Shown piece by piece: positions 3,205 through 62,330 of a stretch of 64,000 bases of DNA; the first letter of the stretch is position 1; each line of letters starts with the position of its first letter. The position numbers and the translations under genes are program-made. The stretch comes from an uncultured bacterium (GTDB lineage: Bacteria; Fermentibacterota; Fermentibacteria; Fermentibacterales; JCC-6): assembly GCA_964553045.1 (NCBI GenBank), contig CAZKJG010000008.1, positions 27,465 to 91,464 on the forward strand, in the 5' to 3' direction. The notes below the pieces were generated by a model. The model did not search any database, was not told where the DNA came from, and saw nothing but the letters and a program-made list of their open reading frames with translations.

Positions 3205-4019
3205 AGGAGCCCTTCTGCCATGGTCCGGATCACGGACGGAAGGGAGTCGGCCGACAGCCCCGGGTCCTCCAGCTCGAAGCTCAGCCTCGTATGTCGGCCG
3301 CCCTGTCTGACCATCCTGGCCTCCAGGGAGATGAAGGGGTCCGTCGAAAGGTCCATCCGCAGTGCCCGGGGTCGAAGGGAGAGAAAGGAGGTTCGAAGCT
3401 CCGCCAGGCTCGGGTACCAGCGCTGCAGCGGCAGCAGCCCCAGGAAGTTGATCATGTTGCCCGGCAGCAGGAGGGAAATCTGCGCATGGCCGCCTTCGAG
3501 AGCGGCAAGGCCGGTGTCGGCGGCCAGTGAGGCCTCTTCCCCCATCTCCAGCCAGGGGCCGACGACGGCCGTCGGGGCCTTGCCCATGTACAGGCAGGTC
3601 CAGCCGTTCCGGGAGGCCACCGAGCCCAGGATGCCCCCCCGCTCGGTGAGCAGGTCGGTGCGTCCCCGCGACTCCACCGCGCGGCACTCCAGCCGGGAGC
3701 TGGCGATCCGCTCCATTCCGGCCGCATCCACGTCCCGGGTAAGGAACAGCAGCTGCGGCTTCAGGGTGGTGAAGTCGATGGATATCACGGCCGTTCCCAG
3801 GGGACCGGCGGCCAGCAGGTCTTCCAGCAGACCCCCGGGTACGCCGCTGGTCTCCTCCGGGAGCAGGGCGGAGACAAGCCCGAAGGCGTCGGGCGCTATC
3901 CTTATGTAGCAGAGGCTGTTTGCCGGGACCATGGCCAGATCGCCGCTGTCGGGCCCGCCGCCGCAGCAGGATGCGCCCAGTACGCAGGCCAGCAGCGCTG
4001 CGGCAAGTCTTCGGCTCAT
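3201..4019 (-). CDS. Hypothetical lipoprotein co-transcribed with the ABC ATPase and permease
   Basis: ATG at 4019 is preceded by GGAGGGAG. Signal peptide MSRRLAAALLACVLGASCC has a lipobox-like Cys. No recognisable catalytic motif. Confidence 0.55.
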   Translation of the reverse strand: MSRRLAAALLACVLGASCCGGGPDSGDLAMVPANSLCYIRIAPDAFGLVSALLPEETSGVPGGLLEDLLAAGPLGTAVISIDFTTLKPQLLFLTRDVDAAGMERIASSRLECRAVESRGRTDLLTERGGILGSVASRNGWTCLYMGKAPTAVVGPWLEMGEEASLAADTGLAALEGGHAQISLLLPGNMINFLGLLPLQRWYPSLAELRTSFLSLRPRALRMDLSTDPFISLEARMVRQGGRHTRLSFELEDPGLSADSLPSVIRTMAEGLL

Positions 4020-4175
4020 ATTCTTGACAGCTCCCTCCAGCAGGCTTAGCTTTCCCGCCCCGGTAAGAGTACGTCCTTGCCAGAGAGGCGTCAACGACTC
4101 GATTCAGAGCCGCTGGCGCCTTGACGATATGGGGGCCCGGGGATATTGTTGCGACTCGCGTAGAAAGCGGATGCT

Positions 4176-4251
4176 GCTGGCGTAGCTCAATTGGCAGAGC
4201 AGCTGATTTGTAATCAGCAGGTTGCGGGTTCGAGTCCCATCGCCAGCTCCA
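4176..4251 (+). tRNA. thrU: tRNA-Thr (anticodon TGT)
   Basis: Cloverleaf: acceptor GCTGGCG/CGCCAGC, D-arm GCTCAATTGGCAGAGC, anticodon loop TTTGTAA, T-loop TTCGAGT, encoded CCA. One C-A mismatch in the T-stem. Confidence 0.8.
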
Positions 4252-4272
4252 GTTCCGAAGATGACATAGACG

Positions 4273-4358
4273 GGCGAGGTTCCCGAGCGGTCAAAGGGGG
4301 CAGACTGTAAATCTGTTGGCTTAAGCCTTCGGTGGTTCGAATCCACCCCTCGCCACCA
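4273..4358 (+). tRNA. tyrU: tRNA-Tyr (anticodon GTA), class II long variable arm
   Basis: Acceptor GGCGAGG/CCTCGCC, anticodon loop CTGTAAA, long variable arm, T-arm GGTGGTTCGAATCCACC, encoded CCA. Confidence 0.9.
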
Positions 4359-5208: not shown

Positions 5209-6402
<1,194 letters not shown>

Positions 6403-55840: not shown

Positions 55841-56411
55841 AGAGATCGGCAGTACGGCCAGGGCTTACGTGGAGGCGGCCGGGGCCGCATTTCAGGGTAT
55901 CGATACGGAGGACCTGGAGAGGGCCGTGGAGGTCTGCTGGAGATCCCTGGCCTCCGGGGGCAGGCTCCTGGTCTGCGGAAACGGCGGAAGCGCAGCCGAT
56001 TCGCAGCACCTGGCTGCGGAGCTGGTCGGCCGCTTCAGGCTGGAGAGGCGGGGCATGCCGGCCGTATCCCTGTCCGCCGACACCGCGGTGCTTACGGCCC
56101 TGGCCAACGACTACGGCTACGAGAGGGTCTTCGCCCGCCAGGTGGAGGCGCTGGGAAGGCCGGGGGACGTACTGCTGGCCATCTCCACCAGCGGCAGATC
56201 GGACAACGTTATCGGGGCCGCCGAATGTGCTTCCAGGACGGGTATGGAGGTTGTGGGCCTGACCGGATCCGACCCCGGACCCCTGGGGGCCCGCTGCGAC
56301 GTCGTGGTCCGGGCGCCTTCCCCGGTCACCAGCCACGCGCAGGAGTGCATGCTGGTGCTCGAGCACGCGTTGTGCCACTGCCTGGAGTCCAGGCTGGAGG
56401 CGCATGGCTAG
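55830..56411 (+). CDS. gmhA: Phosphoheptose (sedoheptulose-7-phosphate) isomerase, SIS domain
   Basis: ...LLVCGNGGSAADSQHLAAELVGRF...LLAISTSGRSDNV. Confidence 0.85.
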   Translation: MDAEEIGSTARAYVEAAGAAFQGIDTEDLERAVEVCWRSLASGGRLLVCGNGGSAADSQHLAAELVGRFRLERRGMPAVSLSADTAVLTALANDYGYERVFARQVEALGRPGDVLLAISTSGRSDNVIGAAECASRTGMEVVGLTGSDPGPLGARCDVVVRAPSPVTSHAQECMLVLEHALCHCLESRLEAHG

Positions 56412-57444
56412 AAGGGGAGGAACCGGGCTGGTCCTCAGGGCGGTCCTGGGTCTGGCCATCGCCGGGGCCACGCTCTGGCTGACCTACCGCCGGACGGACC
56501 TCGACGCCCTCGGCGGGGCGCTGGCGCAGTCGGACTGGCCCTGGCTGGCCGCCGTGCTTCCCCTCCTGGCCCTGAGCTACGTTCTGCGCATAGTGCGCTG
56601 GCGCATACTGCTCACCCCGGTGGGGAGGGTCAGCTTTCGGGCGGCCATCGCCCCGCTCCTCAGCGGGTTCATGATCAACTCCATACTGCCCGGACGGGTG
56701 GGCGAGGTGGCCAGGGCCCTGCTCCTCTCACGGAAGACGGGCGTCCCCCGGGCCTCCTCCATGGCCACCGTGGTGCTGGCCCGCCTGTTCGACGGGCTCA
56801 CCCTGACGGCCTTCACGCTGCTGGTGCTCCTCTGCAGGTGGGACTCCTTCTCCCCCGGGGTGCGAATGGGCCTGGCCGGGGCCGGGTTCATGTACCTGGC
56901 AGTGCTGGCGGTGCTGGTGGCTCTTCGAGTGTGGCACGAGCGGGCGGCCGCGGCAGTGGCCCGTCCCTTCCGCCTCCTCTCCTCCGGCCTGGCGGGCAGG
57001 GTGGAGTCCGTGCTGGTCTCTTTCTCCGAGGGGCTTGCGGTGCTGCGCAGCGGCCGGGAGGTCGTGCAGGTATCGCTCATCTCGGCCGGCGTCTGGCTGT
57101 CCCTGGCGGTGTCCACCGTTCCCGCGCTGCTCGCCCTGAGGATGGAGGTCGACCCGCTGCTCCCCTTCCTCATACTGGTCCTGGCCGCCTTTGGAATGCT
57201 CATACCCACACCGGCGGGAACCGGTACGATCCACTACGCCCTGGGCGTTCTGCTGCCCGCCATAGCCGCCGTACCGGAAACCAGGGCGAAGCTCCTTGCC
57301 ATCGTATTCCACGCCAGTCAGTTCCTTCCGATCATCGTGGCAGGGCTGGCGGCCGCCGCCGCCGAGGGCCTGGGCGCCGGCGAGATCGGAAGGTACGCCG
57401 GGGAGACCGGGGACGACGTGACGTTGACGGATCCCTCGAATTAG
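56404..57444 (+). CDS. Flippase-like / lysylphosphatidylglycerol-synthase TM-region family membrane protein (YbhN/UPF0104)
   Basis: 8 predicted TM helices; ...VLRIVRWRILL...INSILPGRVGEVAR.... Confidence 0.6.
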   Translation: MARRGGTGLVLRAVLGLAIAGATLWLTYRRTDLDALGGALAQSDWPWLAAVLPLLALSYVLRIVRWRILLTPVGRVSFRAAIAPLLSGFMINSILPGRVGEVARALLLSRKTGVPRASSMATVVLARLFDGLTLTAFTLLVLLCRWDSFSPGVRMGLAGAGFMYLAVLAVLVALRVWHERAAAAVARPFRLLSSGLAGRVESVLVSFSEGLAVLRSGREVVQVSLISAGVWLSLAVSTVPALLALRMEVDPLLPFLILVLAAFGMLIPTPAGTGTIHYALGVLLPAIAAVPETRAKLLAIVFHASQFLPIIVAGLAAAAAEGLGAGEIGRYAGETGDDVTLTDPSN

Positions 57445-57458
57445 TTATACCTAACTAA
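57441..57458. promoter_or_regulatory. AT-rich perfect inverted repeat TTAGTTA-N4-TAACTAA (candidate operator)
   Basis: A 7-bp perfect IR in an AT island at the 3' end of the YbhN-like gene, upstream of the ferredoxin/MinD cluster. Confidence 0.35.
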
Positions 57459-57526
57459 GCCATTGTGGCCCGGAACCCTCCCGGCCCGCGTGCGTTTCCG
57501 TACGCAAGACGCCGGTTTCCAATGGA

Positions 57527-57835
57527 ATGGAAGGCTCGCTCATTCGGGCATCTTTCTTGCATGCGATACTGGAGGGTGTGCGGCGTCTCTTCGGAAGCGG
57601 CGCCGGGAGGGCGGAGGGCTACCCCGGCAGAGGTCTGCTGGGAAGGCCTACGCCCCTGCGAAGGGCGGTGGTTGATGTCGACAGCTGCCGCGGCTGCGGA
57701 ACCTGCGCCTCCATCTGCTACTACCGCAGGATTCGGCTGAAGCGGGGGACCGCACGGGTCCTCAGGGGCTGCCAGGGATGCGGCGCCTGCGCCCGTGAGT
57801 GCCCCGAAGACGCGATAGCAATGGTGAATACGTGA
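57527..57835 (+). CDS. Small 2x[4Fe-4S] ferredoxin-like protein (start uncertain)
   Basis: CRGCGTCASIC and CQGCGACARECP motifs. The functional start may be the internal GTG near 57670. Confidence 0.55.
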   Translation: MEGSLIRASFLHAILEGVRRLFGSGAGRAEGYPGRGLLGRPTPLRRAVVDVDSCRGCGTCASICYYRRIRLKRGTARVLRGCQGCGACARECPEDAIAMVNT

Positions 57836-57851
57836 TCCGGCAGACCGAAGG

Positions 57852-58748
57852 GTGGAACGGGACTTGACCATCAAGCTGGCCCTGGCCAGCGGCAAGGGCG
57901 GTACCGGAAAGACCACACTGGCCACCGGGCTGGCCGCGGCGGCGGCCATGCGCGGCATGGACGCGGTGTACGTGGACTGCGACGTGGAGGAGCCCAACGG
58001 TCATCTCTTCCTGCATCCGCGGATGGACCGGTCCAGGGAGGTGCGGGTGCCGGTGCCCAGGGTGAACGGGGAGACCTGTACTCTCTGCGGGCGTTGCGGA
58101 GAGGTCTGCCAGTACGGGGCGATCACGGCGCTGCCCAATACGGTGGCCACCTTCCCCGAGCTGTGCCACGGCTGCGGCGGTTGCACCATGGCGTGCCCGG
58201 AGGGGGCAATCAGGGAGGTGGGGCGGGCCGTGGGAAGGATCGAACTGGGGGAGGCGGCCGTTCCCGGCGGAAACCTGTCCTTCGTACACGGGGTGCTGAA
58301 CGTGGGAGAGGCCATGGCGCCTCCGGTCATAGACGCCGTGCTGAGGGACGCGCCCTCCTCCCGGCTGATGGTGGTGGACAGCCCTCCGGGAACCGCCTGC
58401 CCCATGATAGCCGCCCTGCGCGGAAGCGATTACGTGGTGCTGGTCACCGAGCCAACTCCCTTCGGGCTCAGCGACCTGAAGCTGGCGGCGAAGACCGTGG
58501 ACCGGATGCGCATACCCTTCGGCACCGTCATCAACCGGGTGGGAACGGGAGACGACTCGGTGGACAGATGGTGCGAAGGGAAGGGCATAGAGGTGCTGGC
58601 CCGAATACCCTTCCGGAGGGAGCTGGCCGAGGCCTACTCCCGGGGGGAGCTTCTTCCGGCGGCCTCGCCGGAGATGCGTGGCTGGATGGACGACATGCTG
58701 GACGGGATCCTGGCCCGCCGGGAGGGAGCGGTCCGATTAGGGAGCTGA
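57852..58748 (+). CDS. MinD/ParA/Mrp-family P-loop ATPase with an inserted 4Fe-4S ferredoxin domain (paralog 1)
   Basis: GTG start; deviant Walker A ASGKGGTGKTT; inserted CTLCGRCGEVC...CHGCGGCTMACP. Confidence 0.8.
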   Translation: MERDLTIKLALASGKGGTGKTTLATGLAAAAAMRGMDAVYVDCDVEEPNGHLFLHPRMDRSREVRVPVPRVNGETCTLCGRCGEVCQYGAITALPNTVATFPELCHGCGGCTMACPEGAIREVGRAVGRIELGEAAVPGGNLSFVHGVLNVGEAMAPPVIDAVLRDAPSSRLMVVDSPPGTACPMIAALRGSDYVVLVTEPTPFGLSDLKLAAKTVDRMRIPFGTVINRVGTGDDSVDRWCEGKGIEVLARIPFRRELAEAYSRGELLPAASPEMRGWMDDMLDGILARREGAVRLGS

Positions 58749-58750
58749 CC

Positions 58751-59617
58751 GTGGTGAGCGGCAAGGGCGGGACGGGCAAGACCTCCCTGGCGGCCTCCAT
58801 ATCCGTTCTGGCGCCGGACAGCGTGCTGGCCGACTGCGACGTGGACGCCGCGGACCTCTACCTGGTCTTCGACCCCCGGCGGCTGGACAGCGAGGAGTTC
58901 TCCGGGGGCAGCAAGGCCTCGGTGATCACCGACCTCTGCACCGGCTGCGGACGCTGCGTGGAGGTCTGCCGCTTCGACGCATTCACCCGCGAGGGGAGCG
59001 AGCCCCCCGTGGTGGACCGGACTTTCTGCGAGGGCTGCGGAGTATGCCGGCTGGCCTGCCCCGCCGATGCCGTAGACTTCTCGCCCTCCCGCGACGGGTG
59101 GGTCTACCGGTCGGGCACCAGGCGCGGCCCCATGGTGCACGCCGAGCTGGCCCCGGGCCGCGAGAACTCCGGCAAGCTGGTGAGCCTGGTTCGGAAGAGG
59201 GCTGCGCAGTGGGCTGGCAGAAAAGGACTTGACCTGGTAGTAATAGATGGTTCGCCCGGCATCGGGTGTCCGGTGATCGCCTCGCTCACCGGGGTGGACC
59301 TGGCGCTGATGCTGGTCGAGCCCTCGGTCTCCGGCGCCCACGACCTGCAGAGGCTGCTGTCTCTGTCCTCGCGGCTGGGCGTGGAGTCGGCGGTGGCCGT
59401 GAACAGATGGGACATAAGCCCGGAGATGACCGGGAGGATAGAGGGCATGGCGCGAAAGGCGGGAGCGGAGGTCCTGGGCCGCATTCGCTACGATGACCGC
59501 GTCACGGAAGCCATAGTCGCCCGAAAGGCCCCGGTGGAGCACTTCGGGGAGGGGGCGGCGGAGGACATGAGGCAGGTCTGGCGCAGAGCGGAGAGCCTTC
59601 TGCGCCGGCAGGGATAG
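58751..59617 (+). CDS. MinD/ParA/Mrp-family P-loop ATPase with an inserted 4Fe-4S ferredoxin domain (paralog 2; start uncertain)
   Basis: VSGKGGTGKTS, CTGCGRCVEVC...CEGCGVCRLACP. The start may lie a few codons upstream (in-frame ATT 58736 / CTG 58745) to include IRELTVV. Confidence 0.7.
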   Translation: MVSGKGGTGKTSLAASISVLAPDSVLADCDVDAADLYLVFDPRRLDSEEFSGGSKASVITDLCTGCGRCVEVCRFDAFTREGSEPPVVDRTFCEGCGVCRLACPADAVDFSPSRDGWVYRSGTRRGPMVHAELAPGRENSGKLVSLVRKRAAQWAGRKGLDLVVIDGSPGIGCPVIASLTGVDLALMLVEPSVSGAHDLQRLLSLSSRLGVESAVAVNRWDISPEMTGRIEGMARKAGAEVLGRIRYDDRVTEAIVARKAPVEHFGEGAAEDMRQVWRRAESLLRRQG

Positions 59618-59625
59618 GAGAGACC

Positions 59626-59877
59626 ATGCCCACCTACGACTACGAGTGCAGGGCCTGTGGAAACAGGTTCGAGAGGTTCCAGAAGATCACCGACGATCCC
59701 CTGGAGGAGTGCCCCGAGTGCGGGGGTAGCGTGGAGCGCCTCATCGGAGGCGGCGCCGGGCTTATCTTCAAGGGTCCGGGATTCCACGCCACCGACTACC
59801 GCAGCGGAGGGCCTTCCGAAAACGGCGAATCGTGCTGCCCCAACGGCAGCTGCTGCAGCGACGGTTCCTGCGACTGA
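59626..59877 (+). CDS. FmdB-family zinc-ribbon protein with a Cys-rich tail
   Basis: MPTYDYECRACGNRFERFQ...CPECGG; tail CCPNGSCCSDGSCD. Confidence 0.8.
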   Translation: MPTYDYECRACGNRFERFQKITDDPLEECPECGGSVERLIGGGAGLIFKGPGFHATDYRSGGPSENGESCCPNGSCCSDGSCD

Positions 59878-59959
59878 CCGTTGCTGGGCACGGGGACGGG
59901 GCGTTCGTATAATACCCGGGACATCCCGGCAGTGAGCACACCCAATCCGGAGAAGCACT

Positions 59960-61282
59960 ATGGCAACGGCCAGTTGGCGCACGATCCCGGCTGCGGTTGC
60001 CCTCGTCCTGGTCGTTGCGGCCTGCGGGGGGGACGGTGCGGAGGACGGCGCGGCCACCGTAATCTTCTGGCACGCCATGGGAGGGCCGCTGGGCGAGATG
60101 CTGGAGGACACCCTGATCGCCGAGTTCAACGCCTCCCACCCCGGCATAGAGGTGCTGCCCGTCTCCATGGGCAACTACCGGGCCCTGAGCCAGAAGATCA
60201 TGGCCAGCGTAATGGCCGGAAGTCCCCCGGTGGTGGCCCAGGCCTACGAGACCTGGACCGCGCAGCTTATAGACGGCGGCGTCCTGGTGAGCTTCGACAG
60301 CCTGATGGCCTCCGATGCCTCCTTCACCGAAGAGCAGTGGGAGGACTTCTTCGAGGTCTTCCGGCGCAACAACAGCTTCGACGGCACCGTGTACAGCTTT
60401 CCCTTCAACAAGAGCGTCCCCGCCATCTACTACAACACCACCCTCTTCGACAGCCTGGGGCTGGAGCCCGCCGATACCTGGGAGGAGCAGCGGCGGCTGC
60501 TGCGCAGGCTCACCATCGACGGCAACGCCGACGGCGATTTGCGAGACGAGTCCGACGTATGGGGAACCGCCTTCTCCGTGAGCACATGGATGTTCGAGAA
60601 CCTGCTGGTGCAGGCCGGAGGGGACCTGATGGCGCCGGACTCGCAGAGCACGGCCTTTGCCGGACGCCGGGGAGTGGAGGCCCTGGAGTTCCTCTCCTCG
60701 CTGATACACGAGGACAGCGTGGCCTACCTGTCCACCGGCTACGAGCACCAGAAGGAGTTCGCCGATGGCAGGGTGGGGCTGGTGCAGGGCTCGGTGACCT
60801 CGCTGGCCTTCATGGAGAGCGACATGGCGCGGCGGGCGGAGAACGGGCTGTCGACGTTCAGGATAGGAATAGCCCCCCTGCCCGCCGGACGCAGGCGGGG
60901 AGTTATCATATCCGGCACCAACGTGGTGATATTCAGCGGCCACCCCGTGGCCCGAATAGACGCCGCCTGGGAGTTCGTGAAGTGGTTCACCGCGCCACAG
61001 CAGCAGGCCCGATGGTTCGCGGCCACCGGTTACCTGCCCGCCAGGATCAGCTCCCTTGAGGAACCCGCCGCCCGGGCCAGGATCGAGGAGTACCCGGGGC
61101 TGCGGGGGGTTCTGGGGCAGCTGGAGTACGCCACATTCGAGCCCCAGCTGAAAGCTTGGTTCGACGGCCGGGAGTTCCTCTCCGAGGCCGTCGAGATAGC
61201 GATATACGGACAGATGACACCGGAGGAGGCCCTCGGGCGGGCGGCGGAGCTCGCCGACGAGGAGATCTCCACGACGGACTGA
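59960..61282 (+). CDS. ABC transporter extracellular solute-binding lipoprotein (family-1, sugar/oligosaccharide type)
   Basis: Lipobox VVAACGG. Type-2 periplasmic-binding-fold hallmarks (...IFWHAMGG..., SFPFNKSVPAIYYN). Confidence 0.7.
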   Translation: MATASWRTIPAAVALVLVVAACGGDGAEDGAATVIFWHAMGGPLGEMLEDTLIAEFNASHPGIEVLPVSMGNYRALSQKIMASVMAGSPPVVAQAYETWTAQLIDGGVLVSFDSLMASDASFTEEQWEDFFEVFRRNNSFDGTVYSFPFNKSVPAIYYNTTLFDSLGLEPADTWEEQRRLLRRLTIDGNADGDLRDESDVWGTAFSVSTWMFENLLVQAGGDLMAPDSQSTAFAGRRGVEALEFLSSLIHEDSVAYLSTGYEHQKEFADGRVGLVQGSVTSLAFMESDMARRAENGLSTFRIGIAPLPAGRRRGVIISGTNVVIFSGHPVARIDAAWEFVKWFTAPQQQARWFAATGYLPARISSLEEPAARARIEEYPGLRGVLGQLEYATFEPQLKAWFDGREFLSEAVEIAIYGQMTPEEALGRAAELADEEISTTD

Positions 61283-61307
61283 GAACAGCACAGAGAAAGG
61301 GGACCGG

Positions 61308-62330
61308 ATGAGAGCAACCAGGCTGGCGCTCATTGCGCTCTGCTGCGCGGTGCCCGCCATGGCCCAGCCGCTGCTGACGGTGGCCGAGGCCCGCCAGGAT
61401 GCCGACGGAGACGGCGTCCCGGATTACTCCGGGGAGGTCGTCACCATAGAGGCCACGGCTACCTGCGAGGGAACGCTGTTCAGCACCGGCTCGGGGCTCA
61501 GCTTCTACGTACAGGACCCCACCGCCGGCATCAACGTGTACGGCCCGGGCCTGACCCCGGACCAGCCCATCGAGGCCGGAGACAGCCTGCGCATCACCGG
61601 CGAGATAACCCAGTACAACGGCCTCGTGGAGATAAAGCCCGACACGGAGAGCGACATCGAGTACCTGGGATCCCCCGGTGTGCCCGACCCCCTGCAGCTG
61701 GTTCTAAACCAGGGGGTCTCCGAGAGCGTGGAGGGCATGCTGCTGAACCTGGGAGACCAGTCCGGGCAGCAGTGGGTGACGGTGGCCGACAACCCCAGCT
61801 TCGCCGGAGGCGGCTACAACTTCACGGTTTGGAACGGTGAGACTGCCGTTGCCATAAGGGTGAACGAGAGCACCGGGATATCCGTCTCGGGCCTGGAGCC
61901 CGGGGTCAGACTTTTCCTCACCGGCATCGGGGGCCAGTACGACTCCGAGCCCCCATACGACAGCGGCTACCAGCTGCTGCCCCGCTACCCCTCGGACCTG
62001 ACCGTCTTCCAGCCCTCCATCGGCGAGGGCTTCCACCTCGACCTGTGGGACAACCCCTTCTCCCCCGCCCTCGGCGAGCAGTGCCACATGGAGTACGGCG
62101 GCCCCGACGACATGAGGTTCACCCTCATCGTTTACGACCGCTCCGGCAGGGAGGTGGCCAGACTGGCCGACTCCCGCTACGGCGGAGATATCCTGATGTA
62201 CGACGGAAGAGACGACAGCGAGGTCAAGCTGCCCGTGGGCCAGTACATACTGCTCCTGGAGGGAGTCGGCCCCGACGGCAGCAGGTACACCACCACCGAG
62301 ACGCTGGTGGTGGCAGAGCGGTTGAATTGA
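61308..62330 (+). CDS. Secreted protein with a C-terminal T9SS-type (FlgD-Ig-like) sorting domain
   Basis: Signal peptide; C-term ...FHLDLWDNPFSPALGEQCHMEYGG...FTLIVYDRSGREVARL...LPVGQYILLLEGVG...TLVVAERLN. Confidence 0.6.
   Translation: MRATRLALIALCCAVPAMAQPLLTVAEARQDADGDGVPDYSGEVVTIEATATCEGTLFSTGSGLSFYVQDPTAGINVYGPGLTPDQPIEAGDSLRITGEITQYNGLVEIKPDTESDIEYLGSPGVPDPLQLVLNQGVSESVEGMLLNLGDQSGQQWVTVADNPSFAGGGYNFTVWNGETAVAIRVNESTGISVSGLEPGVRLFLTGIGGQYDSEPPYDSGYQLLPRYPSDLTVFQPSIGEGFHLDLWDNPFSPALGEQCHMEYGGPDDMRFTLIVYDRSGREVARLADSRYGGDILMYDGRDDSEVKLPVGQYILLLEGVGPDGSRYTTTETLVVAERLN

Follow-up and report, generated by a model that had tools for sequence, protein, structure and literature searches.

What do two neighboring ATPases, each with a ferredoxin domain inserted into it, do between a small ferredoxin and an FmdB-family zinc ribbon? 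The question is raised by four same-strand genes at 57527-59877 (+) of the window, i.e., the whole stretch of 64,000 nucleotides that was analyzed, which belongs to a Candidatus Fermentibacteraceae genome of an uncultured anaerobe. The genes encode, in this order, a 102-aa 2x[4Fe-4S] ferredoxin, ATPase 1, ATPase 2 and FmdB with a Cys-rich tail. That they form one operon is well supported, and so is our reading of this operon as a reduced, stand-alone ATPase module of the orange-protein (ORP) system. The original prediction, made from the sequence alone, named a ferredoxin, two ATPases with a ferredoxin insert and an FmdB zinc ribbon, and the Pfam and NCBIfam scores show that these domain calls and their coordinates were right. 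It also expected the gene neighborhood to be conserved. This is true of the sub-order ATPase1-ATPase2-FmdB, which is found again in other phyla, whereas the complete four-gene order is seen only in Fermentibacteraceae (four lineages, 74-89% identity).

An Orp3/Orp4-type ATPase pair

ATPase 1, the "first" paralog of the Orp3/Orp4 type, lies on the plus strand and runs from 57852 (GTG) or 57864 (TTG) to 58748, with CbiA at 64.2 bits and two Fer4 stretches; the database copy (P0001, 294 aa) begins at 57864. Its motifs are a deviant Walker A (SGKGGTGKT), switch I (DCDVEEPN) and Walker B (DSPPGTAC-P), and in the predicted structure the 2x[4Fe-4S] ferredoxin domain is inserted at residues ~53-145. 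ATPase 2, the "second" paralog (58736-59617, +; CbiA 38.7 bits, Fer4 49.2 bits), has the same architecture with ADCDVDAADL and DGSPGIGCP, together with a block of its own, TRxGPMVHA...ENSGKLV. In the alignments of the paralogs (A1 and A4), SGKGGTGKT, DCDVEEPN or DCDVDAAD, and DSPPG or DGSPG are invariant. So are all eight Cys of the two Fer4 stretches, which in both ATPases fall within the CbiA match.

Outside the ferredoxin domain, two further Cys are invariant in each paralog family (Cys39 and Cys179 in ATPase 1, Cys34 and Cys178 in ATPase 2), one in switch I (D-C-D) and the other seven residues past the Walker B aspartate. Cys179 opens helix 179-185, just past strand 168-172, in a predicted model of high confidence, and its distance from Walker B is what we take to be the spacing of the NifH cluster ligand Cys132. 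The model also predicts a helix at the C-terminus (269-293), the last residues having low confidence; in ATPase 2, the terminal helix is basic and contains an invariant Trp. In fold comparisons, MinD, Mrp/ApbC, BchL and NifH are equally near.

The two ATPases had been described as translationally coupled, with ATPase 2 starting at ~58751. The tight coupling is confirmed, but the start is one of three candidates (ATT 58736, CTG 58745 and GTG 58751). In three relatives the GTG start of ATPase 2 shares bases with the stop of ATPase 1 (GTGA), where the window has ATTA, and the junction alignment shows a GGAGG conserved 7 nt upstream of this start. The ATPase 2 homologs in alignment A4 all begin MKELVVISGKGG, with the window having Ile (ATT) at the aligned Met, and in P0133, which is 94% identical to ATPase 2, the NCBI annotation starts at MKELT. 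That the pair might be a single frameshifted gene can be set aside: it is encoded as two ORFs in 85/87 loci, and two natural fusions are joined by a ~40-aa linker. The first paralog is upstream of the second in every one of the 87 loci, which come from many phyla (70 adjacent, 2 fused, 15 separated), and each paralog is closest to the one in the corresponding position at other loci.

The family, which corresponds to COG1149 (MinD-superfamily ATPases with an inserted ferredoxin domain), is as widespread as had been supposed, with at least 8000 matches in each of two homolog searches. It had also been called functionally uncharacterized, which does not hold, as homologs are found in ORP clusters and work on their Desulfovibrio vulgaris counterparts has been published. 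The clusters in which homologs of 50-57% identity reside also hold MrpORP, Nitro_FeMo-Co, DUF5320 and a sigma54 activator, and MrpORP was verified with the NCBIfam model (503-535 bits, cut-off 450). Because the clusters of these homologous pairs hold a verified MrpORP, Nitro_FeMo-Co and a sigma54 activator, they are of the Desulfovibrio ORP type. Orp3 and Orp4 of D. vulgaris are paired ATPases with two [4Fe-4S] ferredoxin motifs, Orp3, Orp4 and Orp8 co-purify, the two ATPases being recovered together as well as with the orange protein, and in vitro Orp3/Orp4 accept Fe-S delivered by MrpORP (PMC6345978). D. vulgaris is the sole case in which a physical complex of the ATPases with partner proteins is known. 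Cluster context and this published description together give good support to ATPase 1 and ATPase 2 being ancient paralogs that correspond to Desulfovibrio Orp3/Orp4.

A new observation is that the Fermentibacteraceae pair has no Nitro_FeMo-Co neighbor. Such a gene stands beside the ATPase pair in 55/55 well-flanked loci of other lineages; HMM searches found none in the whole 64-kb window, and there is none within +/-8 kb in three Fermentibacteraceae relatives. DUF5320, MrpORP and the sigma54 activator are likewise missing from the 64-kb window and from the Fermentibacteraceae loci, and the sole Mrp and sigma54-activator signals in the window are weak cross-hits to the two ATPases. Fermentibacteraceae genomes may encode Nitro_FeMo-Co beyond the 64-kb window and the +/-8 kb of the relatives.

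Genes and conserved DNA around the pair

The ferredoxin ORF (102 aa, 57527-57835, +) matches Fer4 (36.4 bits, cut-off 21.1) as well as related Pfam families and has two CxxCxxCxxxC motifs. Its C-terminal part is predicted to hold 2x[4Fe-4S] through eight Cys, all of which are kept in four lineages. The 45-aa N-terminal extension is also conserved (FLHAL...AEGYPGRG...), and DUF5320 was not detectable in it. Additionally, the four lineages share the ATG and the length of 102 codons, and dN/dS is 0.22-0.36 across lineages with the N-terminal 45 codons included. Among the five related loci that were fetched, where L090 duplicates L089, gene callers missed the ferredoxin ORF in L001, L002 and L089 and called it in L003.

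Alignment of the Fermentibacteraceae loci revealed a non-coding block kept among relatives at 57424-57469 (+), which extends over the final codons and TAG stop of the preceding gene. It reads CGTTGACG, 12 variable nt, AATTAGTTATACCTAACT(A/G)AG(C/T)CATTGTGGCC. Across the window, L089, L001 and L002 the block of ~45 nt is invariant, whereas identity falls to ~50% in its flanks; a 16-mer from it is present in single copy at every Fermentibacteraceae locus and absent from the other 85 loci. A search against Rfam gave no match to the block. It contains TTGACG at 57424-57429 and, 16 nt further downstream, TATACC at 57446-57451. The promoter scan did not report the block because the second hexamer lacks T at position 6; if taken as the -10 hexamer, TATACC fits the consensus poorly, which counts against our main explanation below.

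The block also contains the inverted repeat that the original prediction regarded as operator-like. The repeat TTAGTTA-TACC-TAACTAA is an exact match at 57441-57458, where it overlaps the stop codon (TAG) of LPG_synthase_TM, the gene upstream. Although it is unique in the window, this AT-rich repeat is not significant alone (1 observed vs 0.33 expected); perfect 7-nt inverted repeats in the window number 118, against 80 +/- 11 expected. Conservation, and not repeat statistics, is what makes it noteworthy, and even so the symmetry is perfect in the window only, as the right arm is TAACTGA in three relatives. We read the invariant block as the probable promoter or operator of the operon, and expression would then probably start from a sigma70-type promoter within it and not be under sigma54/OrpR control as in Desulfovibrio.

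The last gene encodes an FmdB-family zinc ribbon of 83 aa (59626-59877, +; Zn_ribbon_8 68.3 bits, cut-off 34.4; TIGR02605 72.7, cut-off 31.3). It starts 8 nt past the ATPase 2 stop, and synteny is kept at all Fermentibacteraceae loci, where the gap to ATPase 2 is 8-9 nt. The N-terminal ribbon of ~41 aa has CxxC-x17-CxxC and the conserved segment GAGLIFKGPGF, and the C-terminal tail reads CCPNGSCCSDGSC in the window. Its SCCPNGSCCSDGSCD is a variant of the CC-x5-C-x4-C tail and aligns Cys-for-Cys with the CCGRDTRCDRPPC tails of ORP-cluster proteins. The link between FmdB and ORP clusters is new here and specific to the CC-tail type. FmdB was found in an ORP cluster at 12/15 metagenome loci with the CC-x5-C-x4-C tail (two CCGR tails without the last Cys included) and at 0/65 with other tails, and a blind regex count gave 10/13 vs 2/67 (Fisher p = 1e-8). 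FmdB-like ORFs on the same strand were detected at 15/80 genome ATPase loci from at least 8 phyla, and all 10 that were tested passed the Pfam cut-off. The closest FmdB outside Fermentibacteraceae with full-length coverage (P0261) is located directly 3' of ATPase1-ATPase2 in an ORP cluster; a Ser/Lys-tailed FmdB control has an unrelated neighborhood. As FmdB is present in ~20-30% of ORP clusters, it is not an obligatory ORP partner. The searchable literature offers no explanation for its co-occurrence with the ATPase pair, in agreement with what had been suspected.

Possible function of the module

Our main explanation, which we hold at roughly even odds (about 0.5), is an ORP-type, ATP-switched heterodimer that handles a metal-sulfur center, is fed by the ferredoxin and has the FmdB tail as its partner. 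The mechanism that we infer is as follows. ATPase 1 and ATPase 2 would work as a heterodimer in which each subunit is a MinD/Mrp/NifH-class ATPase, and the dimer would close upon ATP binding. This closure is predicted to gather the four switch-region Cys around a labile iron-sulfur or other metal-sulfur center at the interface, and electrons would reach this center from the upstream ferredoxin by way of the inserted ferredoxin domains. Upon ATP hydrolysis the center (or the electrons) would be released or handed on to a small partner. Proteins with the Nitro_FeMo-Co fold, e.g., the orange protein, would be such partners in classical ORP clusters, while here the FmdB zinc ribbon is the sole candidate encoded nearby, and its CC-x5-C-x4-C tail might be acceptor, scaffold or carrier. 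We thereby keep, as a hypothesis, the Fe-S carrier or insertase role that was originally suggested for the ATPases.

The Desulfovibrio literature has proposed a role in cell division and not in cofactor handling, which counts against our main explanation. A MinD-like spatial regulator would bind the membrane through the C-terminal amphipathic helices of the pair and position the septum or another structure, with the Fe-S clusters as redox sensor and the ferredoxin and FmdB as accessories. We consider this quite unlikely, as the MinD models score far under their cut-offs (TIGR01969 52.9 and 38.6 bits vs 201.75; TIGR01968 28.7 vs 212.9) and neither MinC, MinE, FtsZ nor any other division gene is a neighbor of the pair here or at most related loci. 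Moreover, the 55/55 well-flanked loci elsewhere adjoin Nitro_FeMo-Co genes, which are metal-cluster-binding, and the invariant switch-region Cys have no counterpart in MinD function. An ATP-driven low-potential reductase like NifH, BchL and CfbC is unlikely, even though the fold is as near to BchL and NifH as to MinD and the switch II Cys presumably has the NifH spacing. Such an enzyme would pass ferredoxin electrons to a catalytic partner encoded elsewhere, and FmdB would be a rubredoxin-like carrier and not a cluster acceptor. The built-in two-cluster wire and the dedicated ferredoxin gene do suggest electron flow, and the FmdB knuckles weakly match rubrerythrin-like and desulfoferrodoxin Fe(Cys)4 domains. 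However, no locus surveyed has a NifD/BchN-like partner, and Fer4_NifH (PF00142) reaches 20.5 bits, below its cut-off of 25. The reductase differs from our main explanation solely in the thing delivered.

Other readings center on FmdB. The family is named "putative regulatory protein FmdB", the conserved upstream block has dyad symmetry, and OrpR, the sigma54 activator of other ORP clusters, is missing here; FmdB could therefore be a small transcription regulator that binds the block, autoregulates the operon and perhaps senses metal or redox state via its Cys tail. This is very unlikely given that FmdB has no recognizable DNA-binding domain besides the 40-aa zinc ribbon, that the block is missing from all loci outside Fermentibacteraceae with a CC-tail FmdB, and that three of four relatives lack perfect symmetry. 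The family description of TIGR02605 likens the low-complexity tails to some bacteriocin precursors, and the Cys-rich tail could on this basis be a ribosomal peptide precursor, with the ATPases acting in its maturation or export. No cyclodehydratase, radical SAM enzyme, protease or transporter adjoins the genes, and the tail keeps a four-Cys pattern typical of metal binding, which makes a precursor peptide scarcely credible.

Returning to the ATP-switched heterodimer, a more far-reaching version can be put forward tentatively, although we doubt it: the ferredoxin, the Orp3/Orp4-like heterodimer and the CC-tail FmdB might constitute a self-sufficient minimal machine, with the CC-tail FmdB as a widespread, previously unrecognized client or carrier. 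If true, the orange protein is dispensable for the ORP ATPases, and part of the FmdB family shares a testable function with the long-unexplained ORP system.

Comparison with known systems

The window ATPases differ from MinD and ParA by the ~90-residue ferredoxin domain after switch I and by the invariant switch-region Cys, and they have no MinC or MinE partners. Compared with NifH, BchL and CfbC, the pair would be a heterodimer of paralogs with its extra clusters in the inserted ferredoxin domain, and it has no NifDK-like or BchNB-like partner. With Mrp/NBP35/ApbC, including MrpORP, the pair has in common the ATPase class and the proposal of a cluster held by cysteines between the two subunits. 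However, the window proteins have no CxxC past switch II, and a single Cys each in switch I and switch II. An identity as Mrp/NBP35/ApbC carriers was rejected, as there is no CxxC outside the ferredoxin insert and the MrpORP model gives 43.7 (cut-off 450); PF10609 matches ATPase 1 at 48.7 bits over the N-terminal 45 residues only. Unlike Mrp-type carriers, Orp3/Orp4 are not the donors in vitro but take up Fe-S from MrpORP (PMC6345978).

The window FmdB shares with its family (TIGR02605 / PF09723) the CxxC-x17-CxxC ribbon and the LIFKGxGFY segment. Its sub-group has the CC-x5-C-x4-C tail where others are Ser/Lys-rich, and the ORP link is limited to this CC-tail sub-group, which none of the curated models compared sets apart. 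The closest known system is that of D. vulgaris Hildenborough, where Orp3 (DVU2103) and Orp4 (DVU2104) are likewise paired paralogs of ~30 kDa with two [4Fe-4S] ferredoxin motifs and a C-terminal helix. In contrast to the D. vulgaris ORP cluster, the window has no apparent sigma54 promoter and no gene nearby for the orange protein, Orp5 (Nitro_FeMo-Co), DUF5320, MrpORP or OrpR, and in their place are a dedicated ferredoxin and a CC-tail FmdB.

The operon and its leader

The operon lies on the plus strand behind an LPG_synthase_TM membrane protein gene (56404-57444, +). It starts with a 102-codon ferredoxin ORF (57527-57835) carrying two CxxCxxCxxxC motifs (Fer4, 36.4 bits), followed by ATPase 1 (57852 or 57864 to 58748; CbiA, 64.2 bits), which encloses two Fer4 stretches, and by ATPase 2, which has the same architecture and its stop at 59617. 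The last gene encodes an 83-aa FmdB zinc ribbon protein (59626-59877; Zn_ribbon_8, 68.3 bits; TIGR02605, 72.7 bits), whose ORF begins 8 nt past the ATPase 2 stop and whose C-terminal end is SCCPNGSCCSDGSCD. This gene set and the 8-nt gap are present as originally described, with matches to Pfam and TIGR02605. The operon probably ends at FmdB, since a sigma70-like site (TGGGCA-17-TATAAT, 10/12 matches; 59885-59913, +) precedes the solute-binding protein gene that follows. The solute-binding protein groups with NCBI proteins from Candidatus Fermentibacteraceae, and an ATPase 2 homolog with 94% identity is annotated from the same taxon; both results place the source genome in Candidatus Fermentibacteraceae. 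Long antisense ORFs in 57300-60200 overlap real genes, as is typical for DNA of 66% GC. The minus-strand ORFs at 58634-59542 (302 aa) and 59768-61360 (530 aa) were treated as GC-rich artefacts; the plus-strand genes match families strongly.

Gene callers skipped the ferredoxin ORF in three Fermentibacteraceae relatives (L001, L002 and L089). Despite these missed calls, the gene is real on sequence grounds, because four lineages share the identical ATG and 102-codon length, and dN/dS is 0.22-0.36 with the 45-codon N-terminal extension included. The extension keeps the pattern FLHAL...AEGYPGRG...RP.P.R.AVVD and matched no family in domain profile searches. No DUF5320 domain is detectable in it, though DUF5320-ferredoxin fusions occur in L033 and L073. 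In these two loci (5636-6073 and 3964-4347, respectively), the gene upstream of ATPase 1 encodes a ferredoxin with a DUF5320-like coiled-coil segment at its N-terminus, which scores 16 bits to a custom DUF5320 profile.

The perfect inverted repeat described as operator-like upstream of the operon is present. The AT-rich repeat is unique in the window but not significant (1 observed vs 0.33 expected); perfect 7-nt inverted repeats in general number 118, against 80 ± 11 expected. What is conserved is a block consisting of CGTTGACG, 12 variable bases of fixed length, and AATTAGTTATACCTAACT(A/G)AG(C/T)CATTGTGGCC, which is invariant in the four Fermentibacteraceae lineages (the window, L089, L001 and L002), with flanks down to about 50% identity. 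It occurs once per Fermentibacteraceae locus and is absent from all other loci searched. In the three relatives, the right arm of the repeat has one changed base; therefore, the sequence is conserved rather than the symmetry. TTGACG and TATACC, separated by a 16-nt spacer, probably form a weak sigma70-like promoter, and an operator overlapping this putative promoter is possible. The leader region had no match in Rfam, and the alignment, inspected by eye, contained no conserved sigma54 -24/-12 element after the TGGCC of the upstream block.

Two ATPase genes and their junction

In 87/87 non-redundant loci the two ATPase types share a strand, and the ATPase 1 type comes first. The two genes are directly adjacent in 70 of these, separated by 0.2-3.7 kb in 15, and fused into a single ORF in two (L004 and L029). 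A single gene broken by a frameshift was rejected by the junction alignment and by the conservation of two ORFs in 85 of the 87 loci, so the prediction of two paralogous genes holds. The L029 fusion is intact (611 aa), and the fused ORF of L004 (5839-9775) is broken by an IS66-family transposase, with a leftover ATPase 2 fragment downstream. In several Planctomycetota loci (L010, L023, L034, L046, L067, L082 and L084), the ATPases are set apart by 1-3.7 kb of other genes.

The junction alignment shows that the ATPase 2 start overlaps the ATPase 1 stop as GTGA in the relatives, with GGAGG conserved 7 nt upstream. The GTGA overlap is the ancestral state. The window has ATTA in its place, with three substitutions within 5 nt compared to an 89%-identical relative (58736-58754). 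Therefore, ATPase 1 is three codons longer, with its stop TGA at 58746-58748, and the candidate starts of ATPase 2 are ATT 58736, CTG 58745 and GTG 58751, of which CTG 58745 makes a new CTGA overlap. All aligned ATPase 2 homologs begin MKELVVISGKGG. Judging from the ATPase 1 model, these residues would make up the first beta strand, most of which would be lost with a start at 58751. Thus, the stop at 58748 and the tight coupling of the original prediction stand, while its start near 58751 is one of three candidates.

Relationship to ORP clusters and the FmdB tail

Homolog searches with ATPase 1 and ATPase 2 gave at least 8000 matches each, mostly unnamed or annotated as "MinD superfamily P-loop ATPase". 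Relatives at 74-89% identity have the entire neighbourhood in common with the window. At 50-57% identity, the relatives come from Planctomycetota, Desulfobacterota, Bacillota, Chloroflexota, Acidobacteriota, Zixibacteria, Omnitrophota and archaea, and their neighbours are Nitro_FeMo-Co, DUF5320, Mrp-type ATPase and sigma54-activator genes. The Mrp neighbours score 503-535 bits on the NCBIfam MrpORP equivalog model (cut-off 450). Gene context identifies this neighbourhood as the Desulfovibrio vulgaris orange-protein (ORP) cluster. To our knowledge, the orange-protein complex, reportedly described in 2011, has been without a defined function since then.

The ORP complex includes Orp3 (DVU2103), Orp4 (DVU2104), Orp5, the orange protein Orp8 and MrpORP, where Orp3 and Orp4 are paralogs with two [4Fe-4S] ferredoxin motifs each and a MinD-like C-terminal helix (PMC6345978, PMC8359166, PMC3897727). 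Orp3, Orp4 and Orp8 co-purify, and MrpORP loads Fe-S onto them in vitro; the genes are controlled by sigma54/OrpR, and cell division is the suggested role (PMC6345978, PMC8359166, PMC3897727). The ATPase family, originally called functionally uncharacterised, is thus partly characterised through ORP-type clusters with MrpORP and the published Orp3/Orp4 work. Judged by gene order, ATPase 1 may correspond to Orp4. A PDB sequence search returned no solved structure from the family, and literature searches for COG1149 or for MinD with an "inserted ferredoxin domain" found nothing under those terms. The genome scan contained no locus of the window's own lineage (best match 55% identical), and the Fermentibacteraceae relatives were drawn from metagenome look-ups.

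FmdB-like ORFs lie inside the cluster, on the same strand, in 15/80 genome loci from at least eight phyla, and all ten ORFs tested passed the Pfam cut-off. Two types of tail occur among them, CCGR-x3-C-x4-C and SCPTGTCP, and the tail of the window FmdB aligns Cys-for-Cys with the former as CC-x5-C-x4-C. From the FmdB side, we sampled the 80 closest loci of a metagenome scan with a narrow FmdB alignment. ORP genes were found at the same locus for 12/15 CCGR-type tails, the three exceptions being short contigs or contig edges, and for 0/65 Ser/Lys-rich or other tails. A blind regular expression on the tails gave ORP linkage in 10/13 vs 2/67 (Fisher p = 1e-8). The closest non-Fermentibacteraceae FmdB with full-length coverage (P0261) is encoded directly after ATPase 1 and ATPase 2 in an ORP cluster, and a Ser/Lys-tailed control (P0264) has an unrelated neighbourhood. 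Across these metagenome loci (L091-L170) the tails form distinct classes, with CCGR-x3-C-x4-C tied to ORP, and neither three-Cys tails (CP-x5-7-GC-x2-C) nor Ser/Lys-rich tails ORP-linked. Another short type of FmdB (MPIFEYKC..., tail SCPTGTCP), mainly from Planctomycetota and Chloroflexota, occurs in ORP clusters L010, L042, L046, L059, L063, L064 and L072, and both types are found together in L010 and L072.

The co-occurrence with FmdB was noted as unexplained, and we likewise found no paper tying FmdB to ORP genes, nor any curated model or searchable paper that sets the CC-tail sub-group apart. We know of no function ever assigned to the FmdB family. The association between CC-tail FmdB and ORP clusters is specific and apparently unreported, which makes FmdB with the CC-x5-C-x4-C tail a candidate added component of ORP clusters in many phyla.

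Possible mechanism and a reduced ORP-type locus

The alignments show the complete set of ATPase motifs and eight ferredoxin cysteines in each paralog. Two more cysteines are invariant in each, one in switch I (DCD) and the other seven residues past the Walker B Asp (GTxCP / GIGCP). The latter begins the helix after the Walker B strand in the ATPase 1 model (pLDDT 91.9), and its spacing is presumably that of NifH Asp125-Cys132. Natural fusions and the published Orp3/Orp4 co-purification argue for ATPase 1 and ATPase 2 working as a heterodimer. ATP-dependent dimer closure may then build an interfacial metal-sulfur site with cysteine ligands, and the inserted ferredoxin domains would act as a wire between this site and the upstream ferredoxin. 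Hydrolysis would pass a cluster or electrons to a small partner, which may be the Nitro_FeMo-Co protein elsewhere and the FmdB tail in the window operon. This reading competes mainly with MinD-like positioning, the role suggested in the ORP literature, and with a pure ATP-driven reductase. Should a nucleotide-switched cluster turn out to sit at the interface of the pair, the NifH/Mrp/CooC logic would gain a further branch in anaerobes. Overall, the original observation is confirmed, and its interpretation was right in part.

The usual partners were compared in other lineages, across 55 loci where the pair is flanked by at least 2.5 kb on each side. A Nitro_FeMo-Co gene is present in 55/55, DUF5320 in 35, Mrp in 29 and a sigma54 activator in 21. 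None of these four was found within ±8 kb in the Fermentibacteraceae loci, or by profile searches of the 64-kb window. Among the sampled lineages, only Fermentibacteraceae has the pair separated from these usual partners, and there the pair retains a ferredoxin and FmdB instead. The most similar gene order in another lineage is FmdB-ferredoxin-ATPase1-ATPase2 in Zixibacteria (L033), within a full ORP cluster. The window operon is a four-gene version without the usual Nitro_FeMo-Co, DUF5320, Mrp and sigma54 components, which makes it a small system to reconstitute. It represents a new and reduced form of the known ORP-type system.
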